UHGV virus genome: UHGV-0112180
Source: a virus
DNA length: 64,000 nucleotides
Reading direction: 5' to 3' (one strand)
Part shown: positions 1 to 39,149 of the stretch, in pieces
How the letters are laid out: each line of letters opens with the position of its first letter
How positions within the stretch are numbered: the stretch's first letter is position 1
Position numbers and translations under genes: made by a program
Notes under the pieces: generated by a model
Told to the model about the DNA's origin: nothing
Databases searched by the model: none
Seen by the model: only the letters and a program-made list of their open reading frames with translations

Positions 1-212
1 CTGCGGATGATTTCCTGTCGGTGATTAACCCGGAATCGCTGGTGATCAAACAGGGTTTTGCTGAACCGTCGCTGAAAGAAGCGGTAGCGGGTAAAGCATT
101 CCAGTTTGAGCGTGAAGGTTATTTCTGCCTCGACAGCCGCCATTCTACGGCGGAAAAACCGGTATTTAACCGCACCGTTGGGCTGCGTGATACCTGGGCG
201 AAGTTAGGTTAA
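1..212 (+). CDS. glnS: Glutaminyl-tRNA synthetase, C-terminal fragment (5' end lies outside the window)
   Basis: Translation ...[68 protein letters not shown] matches the remembered C-terminus of enterobacterial GlnS; followed by a hairpin terminator. Confidence 0.65.
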
Positions 213-235
213 TAGGTATTTCGCCACATAAAAAA

Positions 236-262
236 GAAAACGCCGCTACTGCGGCGTTTTTT
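236..262. terminator. Rho-independent terminator, bidirectional (glnS on + strand, methylase gene on - strand)
   Basis: AAAACGCCGC-AGTA-GCGGCGTTTTTT: GC-rich stem flanked by A-run and T-run between convergent genes. Confidence 0.55.
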
Positions 263-1166
263 ACTTCATTATTGCAATTATATCGTTAGCAACTACACGT
301 TTTGACGCCTTGCAGGACACCGACCGTCTGGCTGCCATATGATGTACTTTAAACCCGTTTCCTTCATATAGTTCACGGATGTTTGGCGCACCACTATTTG
401 TTATCACTACCTTAGCGCCGCGCTGGTGGGCTTCCACCAATAGAGATACCAGCCGTTTCTGTTCGTCGAAACGGAAGCTATTTCCTGAATAACTGGTAAA
501 CCCTTCTGTATCCGGCAGCGGTTCATACGGCGGATCGCAAAAAATCACATCGCCTTCACCAGCCGCCTCGATGACGCCAGCAAAGTCACCTGATACAAAG
601 GACGTGTTTTTGAGGACGTCATCAGCCAAAAATGCCTCCATCTCTGCATGTGGGAAGTAGGGCGCTTTGTATTTGCCATACCCCACGTTGAACTCGCCAT
701 TTTGGTTGTACCGCGTTACGCCATTAAAACAGTGCCGATTAAGGTACAAAAAGGCGGCAGCATGATGTAGCTGGTCATACTTTCCTCTGTTAAATGCCTC
801 ACGCACTTCGAGGTAAGCGTCAGCGTTGTTGTAATTTTGGAAAAAACTATATGACAGCGTGACGAGCGAATGTCCTTCTCGCTGCAATGTCTGATAGAAG
901 TTAATCAGGTCACCGTTAATATCATTAAGCAGGTTGTGGCAAAATCCTGCATTCGTAAATACGGAACCGCCACCAACGAATGGTTCTATTAACCGCTTAC
1001 CGTGTGGTAGATGCTCAAGCACTGTAGGCAATTCTGAGAATTTACCACCTACCCATTTGAATATCGGACGCTCATATTCATCCGGAGTCCGAATGGTGCG
1101 CATATAGCTAATTTCAGCCATCGTATCCTGTTTTTCTATGGCTATGCTTGCTATAGATTTACTCAT
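261..1166 (-). CDS. Dam-family DNA N6-adenine methyltransferase
   Basis: FKWVGGKF, EPFVGGGSVF (AdoMet motif) and FCDPPY (DPPY catalytic motif). Start moved to ATG at 1166, preceded by AAGGGGG ribosome-binding site. Confidence 0.85.
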   Translation of the reverse strand: MSKSIASIAIEKQDTMAEISYMRTIRTPDEYERPIFKWVGGKFSELPTVLEHLPHGKRLIEPFVGGGSVFTNAGFCHNLLNDINGDLINFYQTLQREGHSLVTLSYSFFQNYNNADAYLEVREAFNRGKYDQLHHAAAFLYLNRHCFNGVTRYNQNGEFNVGYGKYKAPYFPHAEMEAFLADDVLKNTSFVSGDFAGVIEAAGEGDVIFCDPPYEPLPDTEGFTSYSGNSFRFDEQKRLVSLLVEAHQRGAKVVITNSGAPNIRELYEGNGFKVHHMAARRSVSCKASKRVVANDIIAIMK

Positions 1167-1809
1167 AGAGCACCCCCTTATTCGCTTCGAAAACTGCCTT
1201 TGCGAATCCATGTGGAGTAGCACTTCGAAAATTAGCCCTGTCAGGCCCTGGTGGCGCGGCATGGATTCTGTTATCTGGCTTGCCTAATGATTCGTCCATT
1301 AGGGCATCAGGCATGACAAAGCCCTGGCCGCTCCAGAGGCATGTTTTTTTGGTGTAGTTATCTTCCTGACAATATGCAGTGAAGAAGTAAGGGTGAAAGA
1401 TGTGATCTGGCTTACGCCAGAATGTCGATATTTTGCTGACCGGATTTTCAATCATGTACGGACAACCGATCATCTTTGCAATGTCATAACACTGCCAGAC
1501 AACCTGCATTGCTTTGAACTGGAAAAACGGATCTTTGTCAGCCTTATGCGCAAACCAGCGCGCACCGGAAACAGCAAGGTCCGTGCACGGCGGAAAACCA
1601 GCTAAAAACACAATACGTTGTAAATTATTTCGGAGAAAAGCATAAACTTCATCACTATCGATAATCGCACTGATACGTGTCAGAACTGCGCCTGATTGCA
1701 TCAGCTCATCTCTGGTCTCTGCGTGTTGTGGATCGACGATAACAGCATCTATACCATGCTCCAGCCAGGGGGCGACCATTTTCCCCGTGAAATCACAAAG
1801 ACTCACCAT
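1159..1809 (-). CDS. C5-cytosine methyltransferase-like protein, short (possible split or degenerate part of a P1 dmt-like gene)
   Basis: GFPPCTDLAVSG resembles C5-MTase motif IV (PC), YMIENP resembles motif VI (ENV); no clear target-recognition domain or motifs IX/X. Overlaps the downstream Dam gene by 8 nt. Confidence 0.4.
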   Translation of the reverse strand: MVSLCDFTGKMVAPWLEHGIDAVIVDPQHAETRDELMQSGAVLTRISAIIDSDEVYAFLRNNLQRIVFLAGFPPCTDLAVSGARWFAHKADKDPFFQFKAMQVVWQCYDIAKMIGCPYMIENPVSKISTFWRKPDHIFHPYFFTAYCQEDNYTKKTCLWSGQGFVMPDALMDESLGKPDNRIHAAPPGPDRANFRSATPHGFAKAVFEANKGVLYE

Positions 1810-1822
1810 CAGAGGTCTATTG

Positions 1823-2728
1823 TTAACGTTCTGCTTCACCACCAACGGCCTCCACCAGCGAAGTGAACATCGCGGATAATTCAGCAGTAAACAGGATAAA
1901 GTCAGCGTCAAATCGTTGCGCAACATCCTCTCGATCAATATCGTCGTTCTGGTCGTACAATTCGTCGCTGAACGACAAAGCCTTGATACTCATATCGTCA
2001 TTCAGTCTGAAAAATGCACGGTCTTGCCAGTTAACCGCAACTGTGGTTGCAACCTTACCAGCTTCTATATGACTCATGATCTCGTCGGATAGCAGGTCCA
2101 CTTTTTTGCAGCGGACCGCGCCGCCATCATCAAGCAATGCTTTTAAGGTCGCTTCCTCACCGGCACGGAAACCGTTCGGGAAGCCATTTTTAATCCAGCC
2201 AGTGATGGTCAGTTCTAATGGGTCTTTCGGAGAGAAGGGGACAACGGGCAAGCTGCCAAGCGATTTCCGTAACAAAGCCAGCTGATCCTCTGCTTTTTTA
2301 GCACTGCTGGCCTCGACAAAAACCAGATGATTGCTTCGGTCTATCAGGATTTTAGCGACTGATTTTCTCGTGAAAGCACGAGGAAGCAGAGAGTGAAGCA
2401 CTTCATCCTTCAGCGAATCTTTTTCAGTCTTCTTCAGCTTTCTGTCTTGCTCTTCTTCAAGTGTCAGGATTTTTTTCTGTAACTCTTCTTTGAGCACTTG
2501 AGAGGGTAGGATTTTTTCCTCTCGTTTATGCTGTATCAGAAGAAAACCCTGGTATTCATGGGTGAGGTTGTCACCAAGAACGGAGGTCCAACCAGCTTTA
2601 GCCATATCCTGAGAACCGCATGGGGTAAACACAAACTTGCTAAGGGCTGCATTTACTTCTGCAGTATCCCAGCTAACTTCGCGTGAAAGACGATAGATGA
2701 AGATATTTTTGAAAGCGACTGATCTCAT
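1823..2728 (-). CDS. RdgC-like recombination-associated protein (P1 HrdC analogue)
   Basis: Near full-length similarity to E. coli RdgC from memory: [83 protein letters not shown]. Confidence 0.85.
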
Positions 2729-2735
2729 GTCTCAC

Positions 2736-2779
2736 CATTTGTGTTAGAAAATACATATTAATTATCTAACACAAATGGG
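2736..2779. repeat. Palindrome: 13-bp inverted repeats (CCATTTGTGTTAG / CTAACACAAATGG) separated by an AT-rich spacer
   Basis: Read directly; lies between the RdgC-like start and the upstream gene end; contains the recurring TTCTAACA motif. Confidence 0.4.
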
Positions 2780-2787
2780 TGCATTTT

Positions 2788-3441
2788 CTATCCTTTCTTG
2801 AAATCGAAGTTGCCAGCAGTGGCCTGAAAGGTTCCTCCTGCCTTGAAAGCTATGTCTCCGTTAGCGGTGACAGCTATATTTTCCCCATTAACATTGATGT
2901 TGTTGGCTGATTTGACGTTAACACTCCCTCCTGCATTCACGATTACATCAGCCGGACCAATGATATATATCTGCCCGGACTCATTCATGCCAATCCTTGA
3001 GCCTGCTGCCGTATTGGCAATTTCATAGCCGCCACCAGCAGTTCGTACTTCAAGAATATTGTTGCGGTGAATAACGAAGTCTTTCGTTGCTGAGATTTGG
3101 GGGCGGGGAGGTGCTCCATCTACTTCCGGCGGCGTCCAGCCGTTGCCTTTGCCAGATGCTTCTGGTGCAACGTTTGGAATTCCTCCCGGTGCATCCTGAG
3201 CGGCACCAACTATCATTGGGCGTCTGGTGTCTATTCGACCGTTAACATCTAAATAAGGAAACTCTACCCAGACCAGGTCACCTTTGACTGTAGGTACAAA
3301 AGCGTTCCCGATGGGTAACTGGTATTCCGCCCAGGGTAGATCGTCATCAGGAACGCCATTCCAGTCAGGTAAAACACGGACTTGAGCACGCATAAGCCCT
3401 GCCGGGTGCACAGTTCCAACAATTTGCGCTCTACGCTTCAT
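2788..3441 (-). CDS. Baseplate hub/spike protein (gpV-like N-terminal OB fold plus beta-helical repeats)
   Basis: N-terminal pattern GTVHP...RAQVRVLPDW...GDLVWVEFPYLDVNG typical of baseplate assembly protein V; C-terminal GGSVNVKSANNINVNGENIAVTANGDIAFKAGG repeats. Confidence 0.5.
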   Translation of the reverse strand: MKRRAQIVGTVHPAGLMRAQVRVLPDWNGVPDDDLPWAEYQLPIGNAFVPTVKGDLVWVEFPYLDVNGRIDTRRPMIVGAAQDAPGGIPNVAPEASGKGNGWTPPEVDGAPPRPQISATKDFVIHRNNILEVRTAGGGYEIANTAAGSRIGMNESGQIYIIGPADVIVNAGGSVNVKSANNINVNGENIAVTANGDIAFKAGGTFQATAGNFDFKKG

Positions 3442-4418
3442 TTGTTAGGCACTCCCAATATCATTCGTGTTGTGTAGCCTACGCGGTCCTCAAAGTGCGC
3501 AACATTTTTTACTATCAGCTTACGGGGCATTGATTCATCAATGCGGTTTTCCTGGTCATAGCGGTATACGATAATCTCTATTACCATCCCCGGTTTTATA
3601 TCAGGATTGCCTGCGACTTCTATATCCATTTTGGGGACGAGAGACAGCTGCATATTGCGAAGAGTTTCCATATCAGAGTCGGATATATAACGCACTGGGA
3701 GTGAGCTATCGCCATATTCGACGTAGCCATCGGTCATGGAATACCCAACAAAACGATATTGATTCTTTGCTGTTGTCGCATGTTCCTGTTGGAGTAGGCG
3801 CATTTTGGACAAAGTGTATTCTGCTTTAGGGTTATTCCCCTCGTAGGTAAATGATGGCGTTTGCTTCATCAGATCAGCCAGGGTATAAAAGTTAAATTCC
3901 CCCCGACATACCCAACACAATGCACCTTTGTCTCGCGCTATCTCCGAAAGCATTTTTGACGGTTTGTCACCGGCATTCAGATGATATGTAACTGCGCGTT
4001 TTAGCACGCTGCTGGTAATTTTAAGTTTGCCGGAATATGCCTTGAATATAGCGTCTGGTGTTTTGTTGGTATGTAAATTTGTGCGCGGGGAGGGGATCTT
4101 AAACCTGCGCACGTCTTCACTGACAGCAATAACGGTAACAACATCACCAGCCAGCATTGCAGACGTAACAAAGAAATCTGTTTTAAAAGTGCCTGCATTA
4201 CCGTTTGGATCGCCCATTTCAGCCACCAGCGATGCACCGTATTTGGCTTTCCAGTCATCAATTACGGTGCCGGTAGCGTCATGAATTTCCAGTTTTAGCA
4301 AAGGGGCTTTGAGGCTGGTTTTTTCTACATATACTGCGGTAAAAATCCAGTCTCGTGGCACTTTGTTATCGTTAATGAGCACTGACTGTAGAAAATATTG
4401 TTGTAACTCCTGGGCCAC
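3438..4418 (-). CDS. Hypothetical phage protein (tail/baseplate region)
   Basis: 326-aa ORF coupled to neighbours (4-nt overlaps); no recognisable motif. Confidence 0.35.
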   Translation of the reverse strand: MAQELQQYFLQSVLINDNKVPRDWIFTAVYVEKTSLKAPLLKLEIHDATGTVIDDWKAKYGASLVAEMGDPNGNAGTFKTDFFVTSAMLAGDVVTVIAVSEDVRRFKIPSPRTNLHTNKTPDAIFKAYSGKLKITSSVLKRAVTYHLNAGDKPSKMLSEIARDKGALCWVCRGEFNFYTLADLMKQTPSFTYEGNNPKAEYTLSKMRLLQQEHATTAKNQYRFVGYSMTDGYVEYGDSSLPVRYISDSDMETLRNMQLSLVPKMDIEVAGNPDIKPGMVIEIIVYRYDQENRIDESMPRKLIVKNVAHFEDRVGYTTRMILGVPNK

Positions 4419-4421
4419 TTA

Positions 4422-5189
4422 TCACCCCATAGATATCGAGGTTTCGGTAATAATACGTTTTGCGTCCAACTCCCATGCTGTGATCACGTCTGCAATCACA
4501 CTTATCGGCGCTTGTGTGGCATAAATACGCTCTTCTCCAATTGGTGCTGAAACATCCGTAAAGCCGACTTCTTTGGCATCCTGTATCGAGCAAATCAGCG
4601 GGACCGGGACACGAACAAGGTGAGTGGTTGCTTCAAATTGTGTACCTGTCATCAGGCGAAGCCGTGCGCCCAGCGAATTACACATCAGACTCATGGTCGC
4701 TTTATCAGTTGCCATTAACGTAACGTCATACGTCAGAATGGCCTGGGTGTATTCCAGTTCTGCTAAAGGCATTCCGGTATCCGGTTCGCAAAAACTGGCT
4801 ACTTTTTTGCGGTCAATCTGCTGATCATCGTTGATATAATTGATATCCATAGTGCGTGAGATATTGACCAGGGGGAGAGCATCCCGGTTAATGTTCTGGT
4901 TTTCAGGTTTTCTCCCTTGCCCGGCATTTGCGCGACGAACTGCTTTAAGAAACTCGATCGCATTGTCGAAACGGGCCACATAGACACGCTCTGCTGGTGG
5001 ACGATTCAGGAATGACGCAAAGCGTTTTTCTTCCGGCGCGGGGGCCACCAGTAAGATATCAGAAAAAATGTTGCTGATTAGCGTCGCAAACGCGTTATCC
5101 ACGTTTTCAAAGCCCGTGGTCTGGAATTTTCCTGTGCGTGAGGTTTGCCATTCACCTGTTCGCGCCAGGAGGGTTTTATTTGAAGTCAT
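4422..5189 (-). CDS. Hypothetical phage protein
   Basis: 255-aa ORF in same-strand operon; no recognisable motif. Confidence 0.35.
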   Translation of the reverse strand: MTSNKTLLARTGEWQTSRTGKFQTTGFENVDNAFATLISNIFSDILLVAPAPEEKRFASFLNRPPAERVYVARFDNAIEFLKAVRRANAGQGRKPENQNINRDALPLVNISRTMDINYINDDQQIDRKKVASFCEPDTGMPLAELEYTQAILTYDVTLMATDKATMSLMCNSLGARLRLMTGTQFEATTHLVRVPVPLICSIQDAKEVGFTDVSAPIGEERIYATQAPISVIADVITAWELDAKRIITETSISMG

Positions 5190-5989
5190 TCGATCACTCC
5201 GTTTTGAGTCGTATCAAAATTCCTGGCAGGTATGCAGTAGTAAAGCGAACCAACATGCTGTGTGCCGTAGCTAAAAATACGGTGCACGTACCACCAGCGG
5301 CGCGCTACGCCGTTTACCATCTCTTCATTCCATTCAAGAATTGAGCCGACGGGGACGTTATTTGCTGCAATACGCAGAATCAGAACATCATCGGTTAAGC
5401 CATCCTGCTCACCGTCTGCGTCAATCGCATGGAAAGAGTCACGCCCGTCAGGGTTATCCAGCACATAAACGATTTCAGGTTCCTGGTAAGTCAGTTCGCG
5501 TTGGTTGTTATCCAGTTCAGTGAATGACTCTTCTCCTGTTTCGTCGCTGACTACCCCATATGTGCCAACATCTGGTCGATATAAGAGAGCCTGAAACGCG
5601 TCTGGGCTGGATTCAATAATCAGCATCCAGTCTGCGCGGATTTGGTCGTTAAAGGCTTTATGCCCGTTATAGCGTGCTTTTAACTGTGGAGTCGGTTCTC
5701 TGCCAGCCAGGGAAGATGGAAGTATGGCTATATCTGATTCGCCAGCATCCGGAGTAAGGCCACCGTTGCTATCAGCAAAATTATCATGGCTATCAGCTTG
5801 GGCGGCGGGTTGCTCTTCCAGAATGCTGAATGAATCCGAACCGGTATTGCCATGTTCCGGCGCGCCTCCTGCATTCGCTTCAATCGGCGCTGGCGTTTCT
5901 CTCTGCGTGCTGTCATGTTCTGACTCCTTACTTGCCAGGTTTGCATCGTCAGCAAACCATTCGTCAAAACGGCCCATAAGCATCCTCAA
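5186..5989 (-). CDS. Hypothetical acidic phage protein
   Basis: 267-aa ORF overlapping the downstream gene by 4 nt; acidic low-complexity N-terminus. Confidence 0.35.
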   Translation of the reverse strand: MRMLMGRFDEWFADDANLASKESEHDSTQRETPAPIEANAGGAPEHGNTGSDSFSILEEQPAAQADSHDNFADSNGGLTPDAGESDIAILPSSLAGREPTPQLKARYNGHKAFNDQIRADWMLIIESSPDAFQALLYRPDVGTYGVVSDETGEESFTELDNNQRELTYQEPEIVYVLDNPDGRDSFHAIDADGEQDGLTDDVLILRIAANNVPVGSILEWNEEMVNGVARRWWYVHRIFSYGTQHVGSLYYCIPARNFDTTQNGVIE

Positions 5990-6139
5990 AGGTCGATCTG
6001 TCAGGTATCGAAAGGAAGATTTTCTGGAGATTGTGATTTTGGATGAAGGAGGGGGAATTCATAAAATGCACTTGCGCACAGTGCAACGGTGCGCTATAGT
6101 TATGGCATTCGGTAATCATCACGGAGGATCAAATGACTA

Positions 6140-6442
6140 ATGACCAAAAAAATTAACATAAAGGATTTCAGGGATGCGTGGCTTGATGATTTTTTTGAAT
6201 TTTCAACACCACATAGAAAGATACCTCCTGATATTCATATGACATTGTCACGGAAGTTGGACATTATCAATGCCGCAACTACCTGTAAGGATTTAAGATC
6301 ACCACCAGGTAATCGGTATGAGGAACTGTCAGGGAAGCTAAATGGCTATTCATCAGTAAGGGTGAATAAGCAATATAGGTTAATTTTTAAGTGGGTTAAC
6401 GGAAAGGCCGAGGACTTGTATCTCGACCCTCACAAATACTAA
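6140..6442 (+). CDS. higB: HigB-family toxin (plasmid maintenance killer protein, RelE/ParE superfamily)
   Basis: KDLRSPPGNRYEELSGKLNGYSSVRVNKQYRLIFKW matches the HigB signature; followed by an HTH antitoxin gene. Confidence 0.85.
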   Translation: MTKKINIKDFRDAWLDDFFEFSTPHRKIPPDIHMTLSRKLDIINAATTCKDLRSPPGNRYEELSGKLNGYSSVRVNKQYRLIFKWVNGKAEDLYLDPHKY

Positions 6443-6512
6443 AACAGATACCCGGTTACGGACCGGGTTCTGACCAGAGTCCACTTAATACGCACGCTAG
6501 TAAGGGCAAAAA

Positions 6513-6851
6513 ATGAAACAGGCAACCAGAAAACCGACGACCGTAGGTGATATCCTGCTGTACGAATACCTGGAGCCGTTAGAGCTGAAGATCAACGAGT
6601 TAGCAGAAATACTTCATGTTCATCGTAACACCGTAAGTGCTCTTGTTAATAACAATCGTAAGCTAACGATGGATATGGCATATCGCCTGGCAAAAGCATT
6701 CGATACTTCTGTAGATTTTTGGATTAATCTTCAGACCGCAGTAGATCTGTGGGAAGTCGAAAATGATATGCGCGTTCAGGAAGAGTTAAGTCGTATCAAT
6801 ACTGCTGAAAAATTTATTTCTCAGCGGAACCTGAATAAAAAAGCAGCCTGA
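6513..6851 (+). CDS. higA: HigA antitoxin (Xre-type HTH)
   Basis: TVGDILLYEYLEPLELKINELAEILHVHRNTVSALVNNNRKLTMDMAYRLAKAFDTSVDFWINLQ is a typical HigA HTH. Confidence 0.85.
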   Translation: MKQATRKPTTVGDILLYEYLEPLELKINELAEILHVHRNTVSALVNNNRKLTMDMAYRLAKAFDTSVDFWINLQTAVDLWEVENDMRVQEELSRINTAEKFISQRNLNKKAA

Positions 6852-6870
6852 TATAGTAAAACACATACAA

Positions 6871-6900
6871 AAAGCCCACTTAGCAAGTGGGCTTTCCTTT
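6871..6900 (+). terminator. Rho-independent terminator after higA
   Basis: AAAGCCCACTT-AGCA-AGTGGGCTTT followed by CCTTTG. Confidence 0.55.
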
Positions 6901-6907
6901 GTAATTA

Positions 6908-7108
6908 ATGAACATTAAACCTATCCGTACAGAACAAGATTATGAGGCCGCACTGCGTGCGGTCGAACCGATGTTCGATAACGAACCGGAAATGAATACT
7001 CCGGAAGGTGATTTCTTTGAGGTTATGAGTCTTCTCATTGAGGAGTACGAGAAGAAACATTACCCAATTCAACCACCATCACCTGTTGAATCTTTTAACT
7101 ATCCATAA
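6908..7108 (+). CDS. Orphan antitoxin-like fragment: resembles the N-terminal (non-HTH) domain of two-domain HigA-type antitoxins; HTH half absent
   Basis: MNIKPIRTEQDYEAALRAVEPMFDNEPEMNTPEGDFFEVMSLLIEEYEKKHYPI then stop; the expected HTH is missing. Possibly a truncated gene. Confidence 0.4.
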   Translation: MNIKPIRTEQDYEAALRAVEPMFDNEPEMNTPEGDFFEVMSLLIEEYEKKHYPIQPPSPVESFNYP

Positions 7109-7129
7109 TAAAAGTAATCAGGATAAGCT

Positions 7130-7858
7130 ATGATGTCAGAAAAAGTTAAAGATAATCCGTCTATAAATGAAACAGAACTAAAATCATTTTCTGAAATAAT
7201 AAAAGATAAAATATTTAACAAGGTTTTTGCATATGTTGTCATTTCTTTTCTAATTTTTAACTGGAAGGATATTTTAATTATATTAAAGTCAAAGGACGAC
7301 ATCCTATATACATTATCTATTGTTTCTGTTGGTGGTAATGTCCCGTTCATTGATAATTGGATTGTATCCCCGTGGGTTTATCACGTTGTAATCCCATTTA
7401 TTTATGGAGTATTTGCATCTGTGTTAGCTCCTGTTCTCACACTGAAGATATCTAAGCTAACAAGTAAATTATACACTGAAATAAGATATTTAGATGAAGT
7501 TGCTGATTATGATAAAAGAATAGAATTGCAAAGAAAGAAAACAAAGTTAAATCAAGCAACCAATGACGCTAAATATTCAAAACAAATCTTAGATGAAAAT
7601 GAAAATAAACTTAATGACTTGGTTGCGAAACAGCGAGAAATTTGTGGCGCGATAAAACTATTGCATACTGATGTTGGCAGTATTATTGAACTATATAAAA
7701 ATAAGGGGGTTAGCATTGAATCTCCGCAAGATTTATGTGATTTTATAGTCGCTATAAAAAGCACATCATTCTATAATGATGACAAGCATTTTAATAAATT
7801 GGTGTCTGATATTTCCAGTTTGTTTGATAATACTGGAATTGATCTTTCAAAAAAATGA
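7130..7858 (+). CDS. AT-rich membrane protein of unknown function (hydrophobic segments plus coiled-coil C-terminus)
   Basis: Hydrophobic stretches VFAYVVISFLIFNW and VYHVVIPFIYGVFASVLAPVLTL; K/N/I-rich composition; much lower GC than flanking structural genes. Confidence 0.5.
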   Translation: MMSEKVKDNPSINETELKSFSEIIKDKIFNKVFAYVVISFLIFNWKDILIILKSKDDILYTLSIVSVGGNVPFIDNWIVSPWVYHVVIPFIYGVFASVLAPVLTLKISKLTSKLYTEIRYLDEVADYDKRIELQRKKTKLNQATNDAKYSKQILDENENKLNDLVAKQREICGAIKLLHTDVGSIIELYKNKGVSIESPQDLCDFIVAIKSTSFYNDDKHFNKLVSDISSLFDNTGIDLSKK

Positions 7859-7864
7859 AAGCCC

Positions 7865-7904
7865 AGCATAAACTACTAGGCTATGTGTGGTTTATGCTTT
7901 TTTT
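7865..7904. terminator. Stem-loop terminator between convergent genes
   Basis: AGCATAAAC...GTTTATGCT followed by TTTTTT; overlaps the last codons of the minus-strand gene. Confidence 0.45.
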
Positions 7905-9085
7905 ACATACTCCATGAACATTTTTTCAGCTTGTGCTGGTGGTGTTCCAGCCATGACAAGCGCATCAATGAACGCCTGCTTCTTCAGTGCGAACTGATCG
8001 GCAAGGCGTTGCTGAAGCTCCTTGTTTTTCTGTTTCTCACGTTGCAAGGCCGCTTCTTTTGCTGCCGCCCGTTTTTTCTGTGCATCTGACAACTTTCTGG
8101 CCTTGGTCAATTGGTCACGTAGTTTGTCGATCTTGCCGTTGTCCTTTGCCAGTTTTGTACTTAAAGCTGCCTGGCGCTTCTGATAGAGCCTCCATTCGCG
8201 TTTGGCGGCTTCAACGTTCGTTTTACTGCTACGATTGCGATTAAACTCCTTCTCGTCTTCTTTTGAGAAGTGTTTGGTTGTACGGCGGCGATCGTCACCA
8301 AATGCAATTTGCGTTGCAGCCTTTTGTAGCGCACGAGCAATACTCATTTGCCAACTGGCGGACTGTAACCGCGTCATTGAGTGGATCACGTGTTTACAGG
8401 CGACGCCTTGCAGCTTCGGGTTGCGAACTTTTGGATAGGCGTATTCTTTTGGCGGTGCCAGGGCAAAGTTACCCGCAGTGGCGATGTAACGATACCAGTA
8501 TTGATGACGACCACAGTCACAATCGAAAGACACTCGCCCGGCGCACAGTGATTTAGTGATTTTGAGAGCTGATTTATCGTCTTCTGCGATGTCATCAACC
8601 ATCTGATCCCATTCTTCAAAGCGTATCCGGACGATATGGTGCTGGTGGACGGATATATCCGATGCTTCTACGCGGATATTAATCACATTGTGGCGAAGAG
8701 ATACGGGTGTAGCTCTTTTGATACCAGATCCGTCATCCACGGCGTTATTTGCACGCTTAATATCGATTGCCTGGCTGGATGCCACCAGCTGGGCGTATGT
8801 GATGCCAGCCGTCTTGCTGTCATATTTTTCGCGCGTTTTACTCCGTAGCTTTTCGAAACCTTTCAGGTCGTCTCGCGTGAAGAACGTGCCGCCTTTTTTC
8901 TTCCCTAACTTGAGAATATCTTCGGCGGATTTGTTCCTCAGTCTACCTGGCGTCAGCGTCCGGTGAGCTTGTCGGCGCTTACGGGTTTGTTCTTTCCTGA
9001 TAAGGTCGAATAAACGCGTGAAGTCCTTAGAGGACAGGCCGTCAGTGATATAGCGCCCGTCCTGGTTTTTCAGGAAATCAGGCAT
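7892..9085 (-). CDS. SWIM-type zinc-finger protein with K/R/E-rich coiled-coil C-terminus
   Basis: CDCGRH-x(35)-CKH matches the CxC...CxH SWIM pattern; C-terminal KKRAAAKEAALQREKQKNKELQQRL tail. Confidence 0.45.
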   Translation of the reverse strand: MPDFLKNQDGRYITDGLSSKDFTRLFDLIRKEQTRKRRQAHRTLTPGRLRNKSAEDILKLGKKKGGTFFTRDDLKGFEKLRSKTREKYDSKTAGITYAQLVASSQAIDIKRANNAVDDGSGIKRATPVSLRHNVINIRVEASDISVHQHHIVRIRFEEWDQMVDDIAEDDKSALKITKSLCAGRVSFDCDCGRHQYWYRYIATAGNFALAPPKEYAYPKVRNPKLQGVACKHVIHSMTRLQSASWQMSIARALQKAATQIAFGDDRRRTTKHFSKEDEKEFNRNRSSKTNVEAAKREWRLYQKRQAALSTKLAKDNGKIDKLRDQLTKARKLSDAQKKRAAAKEAALQREKQKNKELQQRLADQFALKKQAFIDALVMAGTPPAQAEKMFMEYVKKA

Positions 9086-9407
9086 TTTCTATCTCCGGTT
9101 CCGCGCTTGCGTAATCACGGATCTTGTTCCTCAGCCATGCCACATCAGGAAGAGTTAACGTGGTCCCTGCGGGCATTTCTTCCATTTCTGACTCATGGCC
9201 CACCAGCACCCGGAATACCCAGCGCAAATCTGCATTGCCATACGCCCTGTAGGCTGCAAGGTCTGAACGATATACTTCATCAATCTTTATCGTGTACTGG
9301 AAATTATCAGAGTGATACTCCGATACCCGCTTAATCATTTCCTGGTGAAACAGCGCACGAAAAATATCGTCTTCAATGTACCTATCGTCGAGTCTGCTAT
9401 AGCCCAT
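9078..9407 (-). CDS. Hypothetical protein
   Basis: 109-aa ORF overlapping the downstream gene start by 8 nt. Confidence 0.35.
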   Translation of the reverse strand: MGYSRLDDRYIEDDIFRALFHQEMIKRVSEYHSDNFQYTIKIDEVYRSDLAAYRAYGNADLRWVFRVLVGHESEMEEMPAGTTLTLPDVAWLRNKIRDYASAEPEIENA

Positions 9408-9600
9408 AACAAAGCCTCTCAGTCATAACCTGGGGGAAACTGTATGCAGGGTGTGAAATGCGAGAAACAGACAGGCCACCAGTTCAGGGGGATGTGGTTC
9501 ATAAATCCCCTCACTGGTGACAAGTGACTTTCATTAATCTTTATGCGGGGGCCAGCTTCATTTGCTGGCATTAGATTAAAAATCAAACGGAGTAAATGAC

Positions 9601-9735
9601 ATGGATGTTATCTTCGAATTATTAATGCTAATTGATCTGTTTATGAACGCTTCATTGACCACTCAAATACTCGCGTCAATATTTTTGTTACTCTTCTACC
9701 TGGTATTGAGGGAGTTAACAAAGCTACTAATGTGA
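9601..9735 (+). CDS. Small hydrophobic peptide (44 aa), candidate membrane peptide
   Basis: ATG preceded by GGAG; MDVIFELLMLIDLFMNASLTTQILASIFLLLFYLVLRELTKLLM; its stop abuts the stop of the convergent 9736..10389 gene. Below the ORF-track length cutoff. Confidence 0.25.
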   Translation: MDVIFELLMLIDLFMNASLTTQILASIFLLLFYLVLRELTKLLM

Positions 9736-10389
9736 TCAAAGTATCACGGTATCTTCATCAACTTCTTTCCCAGTCAGCGACTTTGGCTGGGAGGTGCCTG
9801 CTTTAACTTTTTCATGCCCAATAATGGACAGGAACGAAGCGAGTATGCCTGTTTTTTGCTCTTTCTCGACTGTACCGGTCATCTGCTCTACGTAATCCGC
9901 ACTGGCAACATTGTGGTATACGGTCGCGTAGCAACACAGGATCATCAAAATATGTTCCGGCCTGATATCCTGCCAGTTCACCCGGTAAACTTCTTCTCCG
10001 TTACCGTTGTATTCGGTGTCAACGATGGAGTCGGGAATTTCGAAAGCACCTTTATTGTTTTGCGGCAGGGATAATAGCTTCTGGAGTTTTAGCTCTCTGT
10101 ATCTTTCCATCCCTACGATGATCGCAGCTCTGCCGTCGGCATGACGTGTCTTGAGTGTTACCTGGCTTGCTCCGGTGCCAGCGGAGATCGTTGGCGTAAT
10201 TTCGTCTACCAGCACCTTAAATTTGCTTTTCCGCAGGGCTGCTATAGCTGGAGGAATCTTTTGCTTTTGTTCCAATGCTGACGCGGGAAGGGGTTTTACT
10301 TCGTTAATCACGAGAGCACCGTCTTTCAGTATTGCAGTGAGCATTTGCGGTTTGCTGGTGGTCAGGCTGAATATTGCTATCTTCTCCAT
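9736..10389 (-). CDS. Hypothetical protein
   Basis: Start set at MEKIAIFSL (ATG at 10389) preceded by GGAGGAAGG ribosome-binding site. Confidence 0.45.
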   Translation of the reverse strand: MEKIAIFSLTTSKPQMLTAILKDGALVINEVKPLPASALEQKQKIPPAIAALRKSKFKVLVDEITPTISAGTGASQVTLKTRHADGRAAIIVGMERYRELKLQKLLSLPQNNKGAFEIPDSIVDTEYNGNGEEVYRVNWQDIRPEHILMILCCYATVYHNVASADYVEQMTGTVEKEQKTGILASFLSIIGHEKVKAGTSQPKSLTGKEVDEDTVIL

Positions 10390-10735
10390 TGTCCTTCCTC
10401 CACGGATGACGGATACAAAAAAAGGCCGCACATGGCGGCCTGCTTTGGCGTTATGACTCCCTACCGCGCTTCGGCTGAAAGTTAATCGTCAAAAGAACCT
10501 TCAACGGGAGCCGTTAGCGCGATGGATTATGTGCAGTTTGTGATTTCCAGAATAGTGTCAACCACTTTTTGAGGATTTTATTATTTGACCGAAACTTGGC
10601 CTAAATCATGTTGATGTAGTTGATTGTTTTTATAACATAAAACCTCATTTTGTTTACATGAAGGACGGGGTAGTGAAGTTAAGGGTTTTAGGGACCGCGC
10701 TCGCGGCTAAGATGGTAAAGTATGGAGTTAATGAA

Positions 10736-11569
10736 ATGTTTTTTATAAAAAATGGAAAAAGATGTTCCTCAACAATACTTGCTACTGTTGTTGCTCTCTC
10801 TGTTCCCACATTTGCCTTTGCTTATGATTTTAGCAAAATTGACTGTAATGCCCCTAAAACCAGACAGATGTTAATCGATGATTATAATGAACTGCTGAAG
10901 GACGATCAGGAAGCAATCTCTGTAATTGATGCTTATAATCAGATCAATGAGATAAGAGAAAAAAATAAGCTCCAATGTCTGGGAACGTATGAATTCTCTG
11001 ATGGAAGTGCGCTTAGGGTTAGATATAAGTTATATTTAAATAGCCTCGGCACACCCATATATGAATTTGCTCCAGTTGAGGAATTAACGCAGGATGATGT
11101 AAGCGCATCTATTCATAATTCCCCTGCAACTCCTGCAAGCATGGCTGGACATGATAAAAAAAATAATGGTGAAACGTATGCCTGTAAGGTGGCTGTAACT
11201 TACAAGGGGGAGCGTTCTAACTATATGGGGGATTCCGGAACATGGGATCGTGTGATTACTGACTATGGCACTTATTTTTCATGGGATTTGCCACGCGGAA
11301 ACCGAGGCAACAGCACAGGTCAGGATGCTTTTAGTGGCATGGACGAATCAAAGCCTGTATTAGAAAATCAGCTAGTGAGAAAGGAAACTGAAAAAGATGG
11401 TAGCGTGGTTGATGAATTTAGGACTGATGTAAGTTATGGGGAAAAACAACCAGTTCATAAGTTTGTATATGCTCGTAGAATAAAACCTACAGGCATGAGA
11501 GAGTATTATGTTACGGATTTAACAGACAAGCGGGCGTTTATGTTTCTGAATTGTCAGAGAGATTCGTGA
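10736..11569 (+). CDS. Secreted protein of unknown function (signal peptide), AT-rich
   Basis: Start chosen at MFFIKNGKRCSSTILATVVALSVPTFAFA (GGAG upstream); cleavable signal peptide ending AFA; Cys-containing mature part. Confidence 0.5.
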   Translation: MFFIKNGKRCSSTILATVVALSVPTFAFAYDFSKIDCNAPKTRQMLIDDYNELLKDDQEAISVIDAYNQINEIREKNKLQCLGTYEFSDGSALRVRYKLYLNSLGTPIYEFAPVEELTQDDVSASIHNSPATPASMAGHDKKNNGETYACKVAVTYKGERSNYMGDSGTWDRVITDYGTYFSWDLPRGNRGNSTGQDAFSGMDESKPVLENQLVRKETEKDGSVVDEFRTDVSYGEKQPVHKFVYARRIKPTGMREYYVTDLTDKRAFMFLNCQRDS

Positions 11570-11576
11570 TTGACAT

Positions 11577-11606
11577 AGCAGGCTTACTATTAAGCCTGCT
11601 TTTTGG
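11577..11606. terminator. Bidirectional rho-independent terminator
   Basis: AGCAGGCTTA-CTAT-TAAGCCTGCT followed by TTTTGG, between convergent genes. Confidence 0.55.
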
Positions 11607-11608
11607 CT

Positions 11609-11968
11609 TTACTCGGTAATAGTTTTGCAGTTGTTTTGATTTAATGACAATCCTAGCTTGCTAGCAGCCAACTCATTTTCTGTGTGAGAACCAGCAAAAA
11701 TGAAGCCTTGTTTTATCTTATTTACGGTGAAATATTTATTATACATGAACGCCCAGATAAATGAGGCAATCCACGGGCCAATTCCGGCTGTGAGGAATGC
11801 CAGTATCAGCATCACTACAAATACCCCAATAAAAGTTATAAAGTCTTTCCTGAACAAAGCTGGAAAAGCACCAAACAAGAATGTAGTCCAGGAAAAACCA
11901 TAAAAACCGGTGATTGATTCGCCAGTTTGAGGGTTTTCAAGTTTAATTTTAGTAGCCACGATTATCAT
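11609..11968 (-). CDS. Small inner-membrane protein of unknown function
   Basis: Two long hydrophobic segments (FGAFPALF...FIGVFVVMLILAFLTAGIGPWIASFIWAFMY). Confidence 0.45.
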   Translation of the reverse strand: MIIVATKIKLENPQTGESITGFYGFSWTTFLFGAFPALFRKDFITFIGVFVVMLILAFLTAGIGPWIASFIWAFMYNKYFTVNKIKQGFIFAGSHTENELAASKLGLSLNQNNCKTITE

Positions 11969-12104
11969 CCTTTTACATAAAAAACATATAGTTATAGTGC
12001 TGTGTGAGATTCTAATGTTACTAATTTACACTTTGTAATGCAATTAAATAACTTTAGGCAGTGGAAGTAACTATTCGTGGCAGACTATCGTTAAGACCTT
12101 TCAA

Positions 12105-12389
12105 TTATGGTTGCTGTAAATGGAGGGGAACAGCCTGTTCTATCATCCCGCGTATCAAGCCAACTTCAAGTAGTTCCTCGTATTCCCAGTATCTGTTTGT
12201 TACCAGATCCAGGCTGGCTATGACCTTGTGCCGGTCATTCGGCATAGCCAATTTTTCTGCTATAACCATCAGTGAAAACTCTTCATCCAGTAGAATTTGA
12301 TAGCAGTTTTTTGATAGTTCCACTTCCCTTATGAGACTGAAACGTCGCTGGATTGTGGCAGCAGAGTAAGTGAAATCTATTTTCTTCAT
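12105..12389 (-). CDS. Hypothetical protein
   Basis: 94-aa ORF; no recognisable motif. Confidence 0.3.
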   Translation of the reverse strand: MKKIDFTYSAATIQRRFSLIREVELSKNCYQILLDEEFSLMVIAEKLAMPNDRHKVIASLDLVTNRYWEYEELLEVGLIRGMIEQAVPLHLQQP

Positions 12390-22564: not shown

Positions 22565-23421
22565 CAACTATTACCAGAGAAAACGCGGAAATTAAATCAT
22601 TCATCACTGGTTTCCTGAGCGACCCGGCGCACGACAACCAATCTACAGACAGCCTGCTTGCCAATGTGTTTCGTATCGCACAGGCATCGCTGGAAGCAGA
22701 GCCTATTGGTGAAGTTTCAGAGAAGCGACACGGCCTTGTTATGGATGGAACGGTAGACCTTGGCGGGAAATCAACTTATCGCATCATTAAGGGAGAAAAA
22801 GCGATGAAGTTGTTGCCGTTGGGGACGAAGTTTTATACCGCACCGCCAGCGCCGGTAATACAGGCTGATGTCGCGCAAGCAATTGAAAATCTCAAGCAGA
22901 AATTAGTGGAATGCAATCGCTATAACTACTGCGCAGATGCAGTTAAGGGCGTAGAGGATGCCTGCCACGCTGCCATGCTTCAGGGTATCCAACCTGTAAG
23001 CCAAACTTACAACTTGCCAGAATTAATCGAAGGGATGGAAGTTTCCATTGATGTAAGCACTTGTGATGCTGATTTAGGTAATCGCTATTTCGGCACCGTC
23101 ACCGAGGCGTTAGAACTTGATACAGCCAAGAATGGTTACATCCTCCTGGTTCAGGACGCAGAGCCAAACTTCGATGTAAATGGCAACTCTCCGGTAACTC
23201 CGGATAGTTGGATAAGCTGTAGTGATCGAATGCCTGAAAAGGGCCAGAACGTGCTTATTTCGGTGAATTTCGATAGCTCTCTGGTTGAACCGCTAATATG
23301 CTCCGCACGCTATACCGGAAGCACCTTTCGGCGCGGAGATGCAACGATTAAGCCGGGTAATGGTATTGAGCAAGCAACTCACTGGATGCCGCTACCGGAA
23401 CCGCCGCAGGAGGCGAAATGA
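22561..23421 (+). CDS. Hypothetical protein
   Basis: 286-aa ORF, coupled to neighbours. Confidence 0.4.
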   Translation: MTTITRENAEIKSFITGFLSDPAHDNQSTDSLLANVFRIAQASLEAEPIGEVSEKRHGLVMDGTVDLGGKSTYRIIKGEKAMKLLPLGTKFYTAPPAPVIQADVAQAIENLKQKLVECNRYNYCADAVKGVEDACHAAMLQGIQPVSQTYNLPELIEGMEVSIDVSTCDADLGNRYFGTVTEALELDTAKNGYILLVQDAEPNFDVNGNSPVTPDSWISCSDRMPEKGQNVLISVNFDSSLVEPLICSARYTGSTFRRGDATIKPGNGIEQATHWMPLPEPPQEAK

Positions 23422-23678
23422 TGGATGTAAAAGAGAAGGTTTTGCAGGTGATGCGTTCCCGGGCTGCCCTGCAAGATAAAGCTCTCGGCGGGGAATATCC
23501 ATTCAGGATGGCAACCTGGAATTTGCGGTTGGCAATGGAGAAGGAATTTCCTGATGAAGAATGGCGTTCGGCAGATTTGCGAAAAATCCTTATGGAGATT
23601 GCTAAAGACGGAACAGTATCTAAAGATAACCATGCCAGCCGGATTGGTCAGGCGGTATGGAGACTGGAGGTGCGGTAA
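23418..23678 (+). CDS. Hypothetical small protein
   Basis: 86-aa coupled ORF. Confidence 0.3.
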   Translation: MMDVKEKVLQVMRSRAALQDKALGGEYPFRMATWNLRLAMEKEFPDEEWRSADLRKILMEIAKDGTVSKDNHASRIGQAVWRLEVR

Positions 23679-23959
23679 TGGCTAACCTGCAACTTGCCGT
23701 CAAAGGTGAATACTTCGATGCCATGATTCGCGGAGATAAAACGGAAGAGTATCGCCTGTGTAATGACTACTGGAATAAGCGAATCATGTTCCGGGAATAT
23801 GACCGCCTGATTATCACAAAGGGATATCCGAAGCGCGACGACTCCAGCCGCAGAATTGATGTTCCGTATGACGGATATGAAATCAAGACAATCACACATC
23901 TGCACTTCGGCGATAAACCGGTAAAGGTGTTCGCGATAAAAGTGAAGATTAATAGCTAA
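23678..23959 (+). CDS. ASCH/PUA-like small protein (tentative)
   Basis: Start MANLQLAVKGEYFDAMIRGDKTEEYR with GGAGG upstream; resembles ASCH/DUF3850-type proteins. Confidence 0.35.
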   Translation: MANLQLAVKGEYFDAMIRGDKTEEYRLCNDYWNKRIMFREYDRLIITKGYPKRDDSSRRIDVPYDGYEIKTITHLHFGDKPVKVFAIKVKINS

Positions 23960-23982
23960 ATTTCAATTAACACGGAGTAATT

Positions 23983-24276
23983 ATGTGGCGCGGTAATAAT
24001 CATGGCGGAAGTCAGATGATACTTACCGAATATACGTTCGACCACAAAACCAATAAATCACGTTCAGTATATTTGCTTCGGCACAATAGCCGCGTAAGAA
24101 ATACCGTTCTGGAGCAAAATCTGACCGTTGAAATGGATAATTTGGGAAACTTCAAGCCAACAATATCGCTTGATGATTTTCCGTGTGGTTTAAGCGAAAG
24201 AGAAGCAATGCTGAAATTAGCAGAATGGTTACAAAGATTGAGCATTGCTATTGAAGATAACTGGATTCAACCATAA
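23983..24276 (+). CDS. Hypothetical protein
   Basis: 97-aa ORF. Confidence 0.3.
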   Translation: MWRGNNHGGSQMILTEYTFDHKTNKSRSVYLLRHNSRVRNTVLEQNLTVEMDNLGNFKPTISLDDFPCGLSEREAMLKLAEWLQRLSIAIEDNWIQP

Positions 24277-24300
24277 TGAAAAACAGAAAGAAAGATTGCT

Positions 24301-24510
24301 ATGACAACATTTAGTAAATTCGCAGTAATTATGATTTTATTAATCCCTCTCACTGTTACAGCAGGGGAACAGCAACATTGCACAAAAGAGAATGAACACC
24401 CTTTCATCGTTATTCAATGCGATGACGGAACGGTGACTGTGGTTAATGTAAGAAATGACCGTGTAGCTGTTTGCCGTAAAGGCGAACCATGCAAGGAAAT
24501 AAAACTATGA
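24301..24510 (+). CDS. Small secreted protein (signal peptide), AT-rich
   Basis: MTTFSKFAVIMILLIPLTVTAGE signal peptide; paired cysteines. Confidence 0.35.
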   Translation: MTTFSKFAVIMILLIPLTVTAGEQQHCTKENEHPFIVIQCDDGTVTVVNVRNDRVAVCRKGEPCKEIKL

Positions 24511-24625
24511 CAAGAATCACTAAAGAGCGTATTTCAGATATTATTTCCCGTATCGAAATGTATGGTCACGGTGCTGGATACACAGCAGATGAAGTATTGG
24601 AGCTTGCCAAAATAGCTTTAGCGCC

Positions 24626-25255
24626 TTGCAAGGAGGTAAAGCTATGACACTGATTGACTTGTTAGTGAAGGAATTATCTAAGGGGCGTGGATGGCCTGAT
24701 GGAAAAGATTTTTGCCATCTATCCATTACGATGCCAGGTAGTAGTCGCGCTACGGTTCTTTTTGGTACGCGCCATAAAAATTACCAATCATCAAAGAATT
24801 ATTCCATTGATGGCATTATTTGTGATATCAGTGACCTTGATCGCAGTGCGTTTACATCGGTTGTCACTCGTGAACAGTATGAAGCAGCTCGCATAGCGTC
24901 TCAGAAAGTCAAGTCTGAAAGTAAGGCTTACAAGTTAGATTTTGAGCAATGGCTGGAGCAGCAACGCGGGGAAATCGATGTGGACTGCGGTTGTGTGTCT
25001 GCGGAAACATTCATGCACTGGTTGCGGGTAGCTTATGAGGCTGGGAACCATCCGGTTCTTCCGGATAGTTCCCAACAAGCGCCCAGGAAAAGCGTAAAAA
25101 CCACTCTGGAAAGAGGCTATCTTGAGGCCGCATTAAAGATTAAGCCGGGCCATACGCTAGGCGTCATTGATGCCATGTTGGTTCATGAAATGGCTAAGGC
25201 TTTATTGCCGCTGGTGGCTGATAAACATGAGGCGGGCCATGCCAACGAAAGCTGA
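24626..25255 (+). CDS. Hypothetical protein
   Basis: 209-aa ORF. Confidence 0.35.
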   Translation: MQGGKAMTLIDLLVKELSKGRGWPDGKDFCHLSITMPGSSRATVLFGTRHKNYQSSKNYSIDGIICDISDLDRSAFTSVVTREQYEAARIASQKVKSESKAYKLDFEQWLEQQRGEIDVDCGCVSAETFMHWLRVAYEAGNHPVLPDSSQQAPRKSVKTTLERGYLEAALKIKPGHTLGVIDAMLVHEMAKALLPLVADKHEAGHANES

Positions 25256-37212: not shown

Positions 37213-37288
37213 TGGTGGCCCCTACCGGACTTGAACCGGTGACCGTGCGATTATGAGTCGCCAGCTCTAACCACTGAGCTAAGGGGCC
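37213..37288 (-). tRNA. tRNA with CAU anticodon (Ile2/lysidine-type, ileX-like; Met not excluded)
   Basis: GGCCCCTTAGCTCAGTGGTTAGAGC...GACTCATAATC...GGTTCAAGTCCGGTAGGGGCCACCA; 7-bp acceptor stem, canonical D and T arms, encoded CCA. Confidence 0.8.
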
Positions 37289-37297
37289 AATTAGTTT

Positions 37298-37411
37298 TTA
37301 TTTTCGACGCCTGAGATTCTTCGCTACTTGTTCTACTCCGTATACGATCACAAGCAGAAATAGCAAAGACCATCCAGGGTTCTTATCAATATACGTCCAA
37401 AAATCCATCAT
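37298..37411 (-). CDS. Small membrane peptide (37 aa), tci-operon member
   Basis: MMDFWTYIDKNPGWSLLFLLVIVYGVEQVAKNLRRRK; start overlaps upstream stop (ATGA). Confidence 0.25.
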   Translation of the reverse strand: MMDFWTYIDKNPGWSLLFLLVIVYGVEQVAKNLRRRK

Positions 37412-37572
37412 GAGTTCCTGAACGCAGCTTTAATAATCGGCAATAGCAATACCACAGCTACTGAAACCAGTGCCCCATCAGCCAACACCGACATCACTTT
37501 GCTGGTGAAATCCACCAGCACGGACAAAACGAGAAAACCAATGGCGCACGCAATACGCGCCTTGCCAATCAT
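37408..37572 (-). CDS. Small membrane protein (54 aa), tci-operon member
   Basis: MIGKARIACAIGFLVLSVLVDFTSKVMSVLADGALVSVAVVLLLPIIKAAFRNS; start overlaps the TerB-like stop (TAATG). Confidence 0.35.
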   Translation of the reverse strand: MIGKARIACAIGFLVLSVLVDFTSKVMSVLADGALVSVAVVLLLPIIKAAFRNS

Positions 37573-38360: not shown

Positions 38361-38462
38361 AGTGATTGTGATGGTCGGTGCTGAACTCCGACACAGGGTT
38401 GTAGCAAGCCCCGCAAAGCGCGCACTACTGTAGTTGCGGCACATCAGCCTGTGCATTCACCA

Positions 38463-39054: not shown

Positions 39055-39057
39055 ATT

Positions 39058-39144: not shown

Positions 39145-39149
39145 TGAAT

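Follow-up and report, generated by a model that had tools for sequence, protein, structure and literature searches.

The window (the whole stretch of DNA analyzed here, 64,000 nucleotides of the UHGV virus genome UHGV-0112180) very probably begins inside a phage-plasmid's own glnS, a host gene that was captured whole. Judged by its sequence, the source of the window is a D6-like (P1-related) phage-plasmid. The analysis shows what the glnS cassette is, where it lies and where its boundaries are, and that it is conserved and mosaic. The presence of glnS in D6-like genomes is already known and was published in 2018-2019. The primary D6 paper is reportedly that of Gilcrease and Casjens from 2018.

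The start of the window contains the following features.

1..212, plus strand: 3' end of the phage-plasmid glnS (codons 485-553 and the stop codon, in frame from nucleotide 3)
213..234, plus strand: 3' untranslated spacer of 22 nt after the glnS stop codon, without a REP element
235..262, predicted on both strands: intrinsic terminator hairpin (A-run, 12-pair stem, loop TACT, T-run)
261..1262, minus strand: Dam-family N6-adenine DNA methyltransferase gene, D6 orf63 (333 aa; the first phage gene after the cassette)

The glnS 3' end, the terminator and the adjoining phage genes

Positions 3 to 209 contain an open frame of 69 amino acids that translates as GlnRS, and its stop codon occupies positions 210 to 212. 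The fragment aligned with residues 484 to 552 of GlnRS in E. coli crystal-structure chains (E = 8.7e-41). It matched PF20974, the GlnRS/GluRS anticodon-binding domain, above the gathering score (E = 5.5e-13). The part of the enzyme encoded here is the distal anticodon-binding beta-barrel.

The hairpin at 235 to 262 contained 12 pairs, six of them G-C, with the 4-nt loop and TTTTTT after the stem. Since the stem also has an A-run in front of it, a consensus scan called it a terminator for either strand. The minimum free energy of positions 205 to 275 was -20.6 kcal/mol (z = -3.2), and 1 of 200 shuffles folded as well. The hairpin also lies directly after the convergent dam-like gene, whose stop codon (261-263) takes in the final two T of the T-run.

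The minus-strand frame encodes a D12-class N6-adenine methyltransferase (PF02086, E = 6e-56). Its counterpart in D6, orf63, is annotated as "similar to P1 gene dmt," and the likeness is to the C-terminal half of P1 dmt. Beyond the dam-like gene, further along the window, are an rdgC/hrdC homologue and baseplate genes like P1 genes 5, 6, 24, and 7. The original prediction had placed the GlnS C terminus in the first 212 nt, then a strong hairpin terminator and P1-like genes directly after it. It was accurate to the base on all three.

A plasmid allele in a plasmid context

Over the full span of positions 1 to 3000, the window matched 86 E. coli plasmids, each about 90 kb in size, with 97 to 99.9% identity. 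Phage D6 was 93.3% identical over the same positions. The closely related plasmid p98222 (95 kb, D6-like) was collinear with the window, and positions 1 to 10709 were 99.86% identical to it. PLSDB contained 117 matching records. Most were nonmobilizable plasmids of about 90 kb, and a few were chromosome-sized records. By genus, the matches included Escherichia (90), Salmonella (16), Klebsiella (3), and Shigella (2). The phage-only part (positions 215 to 3000) was present on 101 plasmids and at no place on a chromosome in 5,426 complete E. coli genomes. The 30-nt junction sequence recurred without change in 18 IMG/VR contigs. The plasmid pSa1423-90k was left out. It was 89% identical, had only short hypothetical open reading frames annotated and looks like a low-quality assembly.

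In D6 and the plasmids, glnS is complete. It contains 1,662 nt (553 aa), with orf61 on one side and the dam-like gene on the other. The D6 copy, orf62, is annotated as "glutaminyl-tRNA synthetase, similar to E. coli GlnS." The local gene order in D6 and a plasmid record was ParM/StbA, StbB, a ParA-like ATPase, orf61, glnS, and the convergent dam-like gene. The order that the window shares with D6 was glnS, the dam-like gene, a methyltransferase gene, rdgC, baseplate and tail genes, and RelE/HigA. All 11 relatives that were checked to the left of glnS (two with 8-kb flanks and nine with 300-nt flanks) contained orf61 and the parA-like gene there. The relatives are maintained outside the chromosome, as presumably is the molecule from which the window came. 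That molecule would also have carried the full-length gene and the plasmid context to its left, as the relatives and the allele signatures suggest.

The glnS copy in the window is a plasmid allele of the p98222/F719 type, not a chromosomal allele. Its marks are E510 (D510E), the KLG* end, and a spacer free of REP elements. The C terminus was ...WAKLG* in all nine plasmid alleles and K-V/I-GE* in all 11 chromosomal alleles (nine from E. coli, one from E. ruysiae, and one from Salmonella). The window was identical to the plasmid allele F719 over 195 nt. Across F719 and 98222 it showed 0 to 1 nt differences, against 3 to 6 nt differences from the chromosomal alleles over the same 195 nt. Among the plasmid-specific substitutions, I112V was present in all alleles, and V97I, Q106K, and D510E were present in most. 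I112V, D510E, and the KLG end can serve as allele-specific markers that tell the plasmid and chromosomal copies apart.

A phage-chromosome junction had been put forward as one reading of the window. A phage-plasmid or prophage might have integrated at the chromosomal glnS, for instance by homologous recombination through the shared 1.7 kb, and about 1.75 kb at 95 to 98% identity is a plausible substrate for RecA-dependent cointegration. The right-hand junction would be the same in a cointegrate, so only the left side could show integration. That side holds orf61 and parA in every relative, not nagE. The adjoining phage DNA occurs on 101 plasmids but on none of the 5,426 E. coli chromosomes, and the allele in the window has the plasmid-specific KLG*, D510E, and REP-less 3' untranslated region. 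We consider integration highly improbable. The description of this glnS as chromosomal fails in the same way, on the partition genes to its left in the relatives and on its plasmid-specific 3' end.

The start of the window in mid-gene probably reflects an assembly break induced by the repeat that glnS itself forms. The repeat spans 1.7 kb and is 95 to 98% identical between plasmid and chromosome, so short-read assemblies break there. Of the 18 IMG/VR loci with this junction in exact form, 12 have DNA that ends inside glnS. Four IMG/VR loci retained only 29 to 217 nt of glnS, and the window has 195 nt before the same motif. The near-identity of this repeat, and the breaks that assemblies do have in it, would also suit an artefact in which the end of a chromosomal contig was joined to a phage-plasmid contig, as had been suggested. 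The same junction was present base for base in D6, in more than 100 finished plasmids of several genera, and in the 18 IMG/VR contigs. The glnS side is the plasmid allele and not the chromosomal one. The recurrence of the identical junction rules out an assembly join, and we give a chimera practically no chance. The gene looks like a fragment only because the window begins inside it. A third suggestion, a captured host fragment inside the phage-plasmid, was right about captured host DNA and wrong about the fragment, since D6 and the plasmid records contain the whole gene with its promoter and terminator.

A housekeeping gene that looks like the host's, at the edge of a P1- or D6-like contig, is a normal resident in this group of phage-plasmids. 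Annotators should not take it as evidence of integration or misassembly.

Extent, boundaries and origin of the captured cassette

Homology to K-12 extended from position -87 to codon 551 of glnS with 96.3 to 96.8% identity. The left edge was about 80 to 100 nt upstream of the ATG in an alignment with many Enterobacteriaceae. The plasmid gene retains promoter-like hexamers upstream, TTGTCA and GATCAT separated by 17 nt. The GATC in the -10 hexamer is a Dam site, and it was conserved in nearly all Enterobacteriaceae sampled. Mutation of dam derepresses chromosomal glnS (Plumbridge and Soll 1987); PMC12369378 cites this finding and confirms it with RNA-seq data. A single gene separates the Dam-sensitive glnS promoter from the Dam-type methylase gene of the same element.

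On the right, the captured unit most likely closes with the window hairpin, as the terminator native to glnS. It has the sequence AAACGCCGC-TAC-TGCGGCGTTTTTT (pattern AAACGCCGC-N3-TGCGGCGTTTTTT), which is the same sequence type as the Enterobacteriaceae glnS terminator. The same hairpin was present 15 to 45 nt after the glnS stop codon in Citrobacter, Salmonella, Enterobacter, Kluyvera, Atlantibacter, Cedecea, and Pseudescherichia. With this conserved terminator at 235 to 262, the host-derived DNA would end at about position 262, against the methylase stop codon. The chromosomes of E. coli and E. ruysiae contain at least one REP element between the glnS stop codon and the terminator, whereas the plasmid alleles contain none.

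One D6 relative, NZ_CP104667.1, lacks glnS and shows the empty site. Its parA/orf61 region was 97% identical, and its dam-rdgC region was about 73% identical. It contains orf61, then a 134-nt intergenic region, and then dam. A hairpin of another sequence lies directly after its dam gene, which leaves a small doubt whether the join is in the hairpin or just after it.

Within complete E. coli genomes, glnS was found at 81 places on plasmids, a few of them in records split across their start. Against the 101 plasmids with the dam-rdgC region, this corresponds to cassette carriage of about four-fifths. About one-fifth of the related E. coli plasmids are without glnS, so the gene is dispensable for the phage-plasmid life cycle.

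The donor may be described as Escherichia-like and REP-less at this site. The donor search found the KLG* tail or the exact 3' untranslated region in no sampled taxon. The only non-coli Escherichia found in the genome scan was E. ruysiae.

We propose that an ancestor captured about 1.8 kb from an Escherichia-like chromosome as one complete transcription unit. The unit would comprise the native Dam-sensitive promoter, the 553-codon frame, and its own terminator. Its site would have the partition module (parA-like gene, orf61) on the left and the convergent dam-like methylase gene on the right. A lysogen, like an infected cell, would then have a second GlnRS gene under its native Dam-repressed promoter.

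Gene conversion with chromosomal glnS

The identity between plasmid glnS alleles was 96.4 to 99.9%, and the identity between plasmid and chromosomal alleles was 95.2 to 98.4%. The two sets interleave. The plasmid alleles were as diverse as the E. coli chromosomal alleles. A table of variable sites showed a block structure, which was clearest in D6 and pYU39_89. Over nt 1 to 800, the D6 allele had 5 differing sites versus a plasmid allele and 34 versus the O157 chromosomal allele. Over nt 801 to 1650, it had 28 versus the plasmid allele and 7 versus the O157 allele.

Recombination was examined by maximum-chi-square permutation. The result was decisive for the D6 triplet (0 of 2000 permutations) and suggestive for the Z1323 triplet (8 of 2000). 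It was not significant for the window-type triplet P_98222, P_F719, and C_EC1 (476 of 2000). Fixed differences between plasmid and chromosomal glnS were found only in positions -77 to +336 and in the 3' tail. Conversion tracts in the interior would overwrite the center of the gene, so fixed differences are expected at the edges, which would keep the originally captured sequence.

The mosaic plasmid alleles indicate gene conversion with the chromosomal glnS. At 95 to 98% identity to the resident chromosomal gene, exchange by homologous recombination would be expected. All plasmids share the same flanks and junctions, which favors a single capture with recurrent conversion over repeated captures. 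We found no earlier description in the literature examined of gene conversion between plasmid and chromosomal glnS, and this finding is a modest addition to what is known of the gene.

Function of the plasmid glnS

The full-length GlnRS of plasmid L001 (99.9% identical) contains all three GlnRS Pfam domains, with E = 5.8e-130 for PF00749. It has HIGH at residue 41 and VMSKR at residue 268. This region lies to the left of the window, and the window's own molecule would be expected to encode the same catalytic domain. Compared with K-12, the plasmid GlnRS has 2 to 7 substitutions in the first 550 codons and the altered C-terminal end. The open reading frame was intact in all nine plasmid alleles, including those from Salmonella and Shigella hosts. 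The dN/dS of plasmid glnS versus chromosomal and other plasmid alleles was 0.01 to 0.04. Part of the reason for this low value could be that conversion has repaired the plasmid copy again and again, and not that selection acts on it. The plasmid gene is presumably expressed, and its product is probably active as a normal class I GlnRS. Its near-identity to the E. coli enzyme suggests that it aminoacylates tRNA-Gln.

The window contains five tRNA genes (Met/CAT, Ser, Thr, Tyr, and Arg), and none of the five is for tRNA-Gln. The elements have no tRNA-Gln, so the enzyme would charge the tRNA-Gln of the host. Glutamine makes up roughly 4.4% of the residues in E. coli proteins. It made up 3.9% of the 14,476 residues in 50 open reading frames of the window, which is not above the E. 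coli figure and gives no support to a special demand for Gln-tRNA. A resistance-type enzyme is also unlikely, since this GlnRS is nearly identical to that of the host.

As the most likely role of the gene we favor an accessory ("moron") one in translational robustness or fitness, with the plasmid copy as a second GlnRS gene under native regulation. We weighed three further readings of its retention.

The main functional rival is a neutral passenger. The gene would bring no benefit, would hitchhike with the element, and would be kept intact by recurrent conversion from the chromosome. The mosaic alleles show that conversion happens, a related subgroup lives without glnS, and there is no excess of Gln codons. 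Against this, all nine alleles are intact, Salmonella hosts included. The chromosomal glnS of Salmonella is only about 84 to 87% identical (an estimate from identities for another query), so conversion there should be inefficient. The 5' 340 nt keep plasmid-specific sites and appear not to have been overwritten, yet they contain no disruptions. The cassette is also present in about 80% of the plasmid group and across several genera. We regard neutral carriage as unlikely.

The second reading is takeover of an essential gene. The plasmid glnS would be the main source of GlnRS, the chromosomal copy would be silenced, and the element would become hard to lose. This was proposed for D6-like glnS by the authors of PMC6799933, by analogy with cysS on pBT1. 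The cysS of D23580 is non-essential owing to the plasmid copy (PMC11481867), and an unrelated conjugative plasmid from Citrobacter contains cysS and glnS side by side. However, chromosomal glnS is kept in essentially every complete E. coli genome, with 5,428 places in 5,425 genomes. In two strains verified as hosts of D6-like plasmids, the chromosome encodes the common wild-type GlnRS, WP_001287154.1, which an unrelated sampled strain also has. Loss or inactivation of chromosomal glnS was thus not seen in the 5,425 genomes or, as judged by the intact protein, in the two carriers. The D6-like elements also already contain two to three toxin-antitoxin modules. Takeover seems quite unlikely here. 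The TraDIS papers PMC11481867 and PMC3632133 contained nothing specific on plasmid glnS.

In the third reading, glnS would be a selected second source of the essential GlnRS that either promotes retention of the phage-plasmid or sustains the charging of Gln-tRNA in stress or lytic growth. Its 1.7 kb would also form a permanent recombination bridge to the chromosome, across which the element and its host would constantly trade glnS sequence. We consider the combination unlikely. Within it, the data support the gene-conversion part only. If it were true, the Dam-sensitive promoter could couple glnS expression to replication or to the methylation state. The bridge could occasionally support cointegration or transfer of nagE-glnS-chiP.

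Comparison with known systems

D6 (MF356679/NC_050154) and the D6-like plasmid prophage pYU39_89 contain the same gene as the window, in the same position and with the same junctions, KLG* end, and terminator. In D6 this gene is orf62. The allele of D6 and pYU39_89 differs in that its 3' half is replaced by a K-12/O157-like chromosomal tract, whereas the window allele is of the p98222/F719 type.

The chromosomal glnS of E. coli (b0680; 1GTS, 1QTQ) has 95 to 98% nucleotide identity to the plasmid alleles. The two forms share the three-domain architecture, the HIGH and VMSKR motifs, the promoter hexamers with the Dam site, and the Shine-Dalgarno sequence. The chromosomal gene lies between nagE and chiP, ends in KVGE*, and has one or more REP elements ahead of its terminator. 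The plasmid gene, in contrast, lies between the partition and methylase genes and ends in KLG*.

A host-type aminoacyl-tRNA synthetase gene is also the cargo of another extrachromosomal element in Enterobacteriaceae, namely the cysS of pBT1 in S. Typhimurium ST313 D23580. Experiments showed that this cysS has taken over the essential function (Canals et al. 2019, PMC6333337, according to PMC6799933 and PMC11481867). Unlike the D6-like elements, pBT1 is not a phage. For the D6-like glnS a takeover is hypothetical, and chromosomal glnS was intact wherever it was examined. The D6-like gene is one of few complete host-type aminoacyl-tRNA synthetase genes on a temperate phage.

Plasmid-borne inhibitor-resistant synthetases, such as the mupirocin-resistant ileS2/mupA, are another case in which a mobile element brings a second aminoacyl-tRNA synthetase gene. 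They differ in that they confer drug resistance and have diverged strongly from the host's own enzyme.

The plasmid p.S175-1.4 of Citrobacter cronae (NZ_CP060445.1) contains a full-length glnS beside cysS, as an independent capture. This glnS was about 90% identical to the chromosomal glnS of Citrobacter and 86 to 87% identical to the Escherichia and D6-type alleles. It ends in KAGE*, has other flanks, and is carried on a MOBP/MPF_I conjugative backbone.

Presence and mosaic structure of the plasmid glnS gene

By sequence comparison, the plasmid glnS alleles are mosaics. The comparison covered phage D6 (L002, 6551-8212), pYU39_89 (L095), and L097 against chromosomal glnS (L091 and L003). The 3' half of the D6/pYU39_89 gene is of the K-12/O157 chromosomal type, with 7 differences to the chromosomal allele versus 28 to the plasmid allele. 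The 5' half is of the plasmid type, with 5 differences to the plasmid allele versus 34 to the chromosomal allele. The glnS gene of pZ1323HEC0010-2 contains a segment at about 366-830 that deviates from the other plasmid alleles (permutation, 8/2000). It has 20 differences to the plasmid alleles versus 17 to E. ruysiae, and the plasmids are thus no nearer.

The D6 relative NZ_CP104667.1 does not encode glnS. Its partition genes are near-identical, and its dam-rdgC region has only about 73% identity. It contains the following site.

L100 (NZ_CP104667.1) 6826-6959: empty glnS insertion site; 3' of dam it has a hairpin of its own, AAAGCCCCATATGGGGCTTTTC

The glnS cassette is absent from about one-fifth of such E. 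coli plasmids, which qualifies a published claim that glnS is present in every D6-like genome.

The same synthetase gene was also found on an unrelated plasmid, the conjugative (MOBP/MPF_I) Citrobacter cronae plasmid p.S175-1.4.

L004 (p.S175-1.4) 3331-7155: cysS and glnS, nearly adjacent

Identity of this glnS to the chromosomal genes of Citrobacter is about 90%, and it is therefore an independent capture.

Sequences flanking the cassette

An inverted-repeat set lies upstream of the cassette in L001, the plasmid 99.9% identical to the start of the window.

L001 6294-6377 (outside the window): inverted-repeat set in the interval separating orf61 from the promoter of the captured glnS

It contains a perfect 13-nt inverted repeat (AAAGGTGCACCAA / TTGGTGCACCTTT) and a second inverted repeat pair (GAACCAAA / TTTGGTTC). 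A 17-nt inverted repeat is present at the equivalent place in the glnS-less relative. The set may be a centromere-like site for the ParA-like/orf61 partition system.

Two methylase-like ORFs lie on the other side of the cassette.

Window 261-1262 (ATG at 1262): Dam-type methylase ORF, 333 aa, overlapping the second ORF
Window 1159-1938: second methylase-like ORF, D6 orf64 ("putative DNA-cytosine methylase")

In related plasmids, RefSeq marks the Dam-type ORF as a pseudogene (partial). The D6 annotation records a match to the C-terminal half of P1 dmt only. Some related plasmids encode one long Dam-family gene at the position of window 261-1938 instead.

Contig ends within glnS

The exact glnS/phage junction is present in 18 IMG/VR loci, and in 12 of them (L105, L107, L109, L111-L116, L118, L120, and L121) the DNA ends within glnS. 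This suggests systematic assembly breakage, or trimming of viral regions, at this chromosome/plasmid repeat.

The glnS region of the D6-like plasmid pSa1423-90k (NZ_MK356557.1; Salmonella sp.) has a full-length match of only 89%. Its annotation contains short hypothetical ORFs only. These features suggest an assembly rich in errors, not a divergent lineage.

Variable cargo

Window 10710-12165, 22984-25105, 37289-38366, and 62197-64000 gave no megablast match in record positions 22922-91921 of p98222, otherwise the closest plasmid, and these four segments are therefore variable cargo. The following genes were noted.

Window 10658-11569: 303-aa protein whose N-terminus contains a hydrophobic stretch, in a segment without a p98222 match
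Window 11609-11968: 119-aa membrane-like protein, in the same segment
Window 37213-39226: cluster of five tRNA genes, one with a CAT anticodon (Met or Ile2) plus Ser-TGA, Thr-TGT, Tyr-GTA, and Arg-TCT
Window 61890-62450: Cin/Hin-type invertase gene, adjoining the window end at the tail-fibre inversion region

The five tRNA genes differ from the sets of p98222 (Ile, Thr, and Asn) and pYU39_89 (Asn, Thr, Ser, and Met; PMC6799933). The tRNA cargo thus varies within the group.
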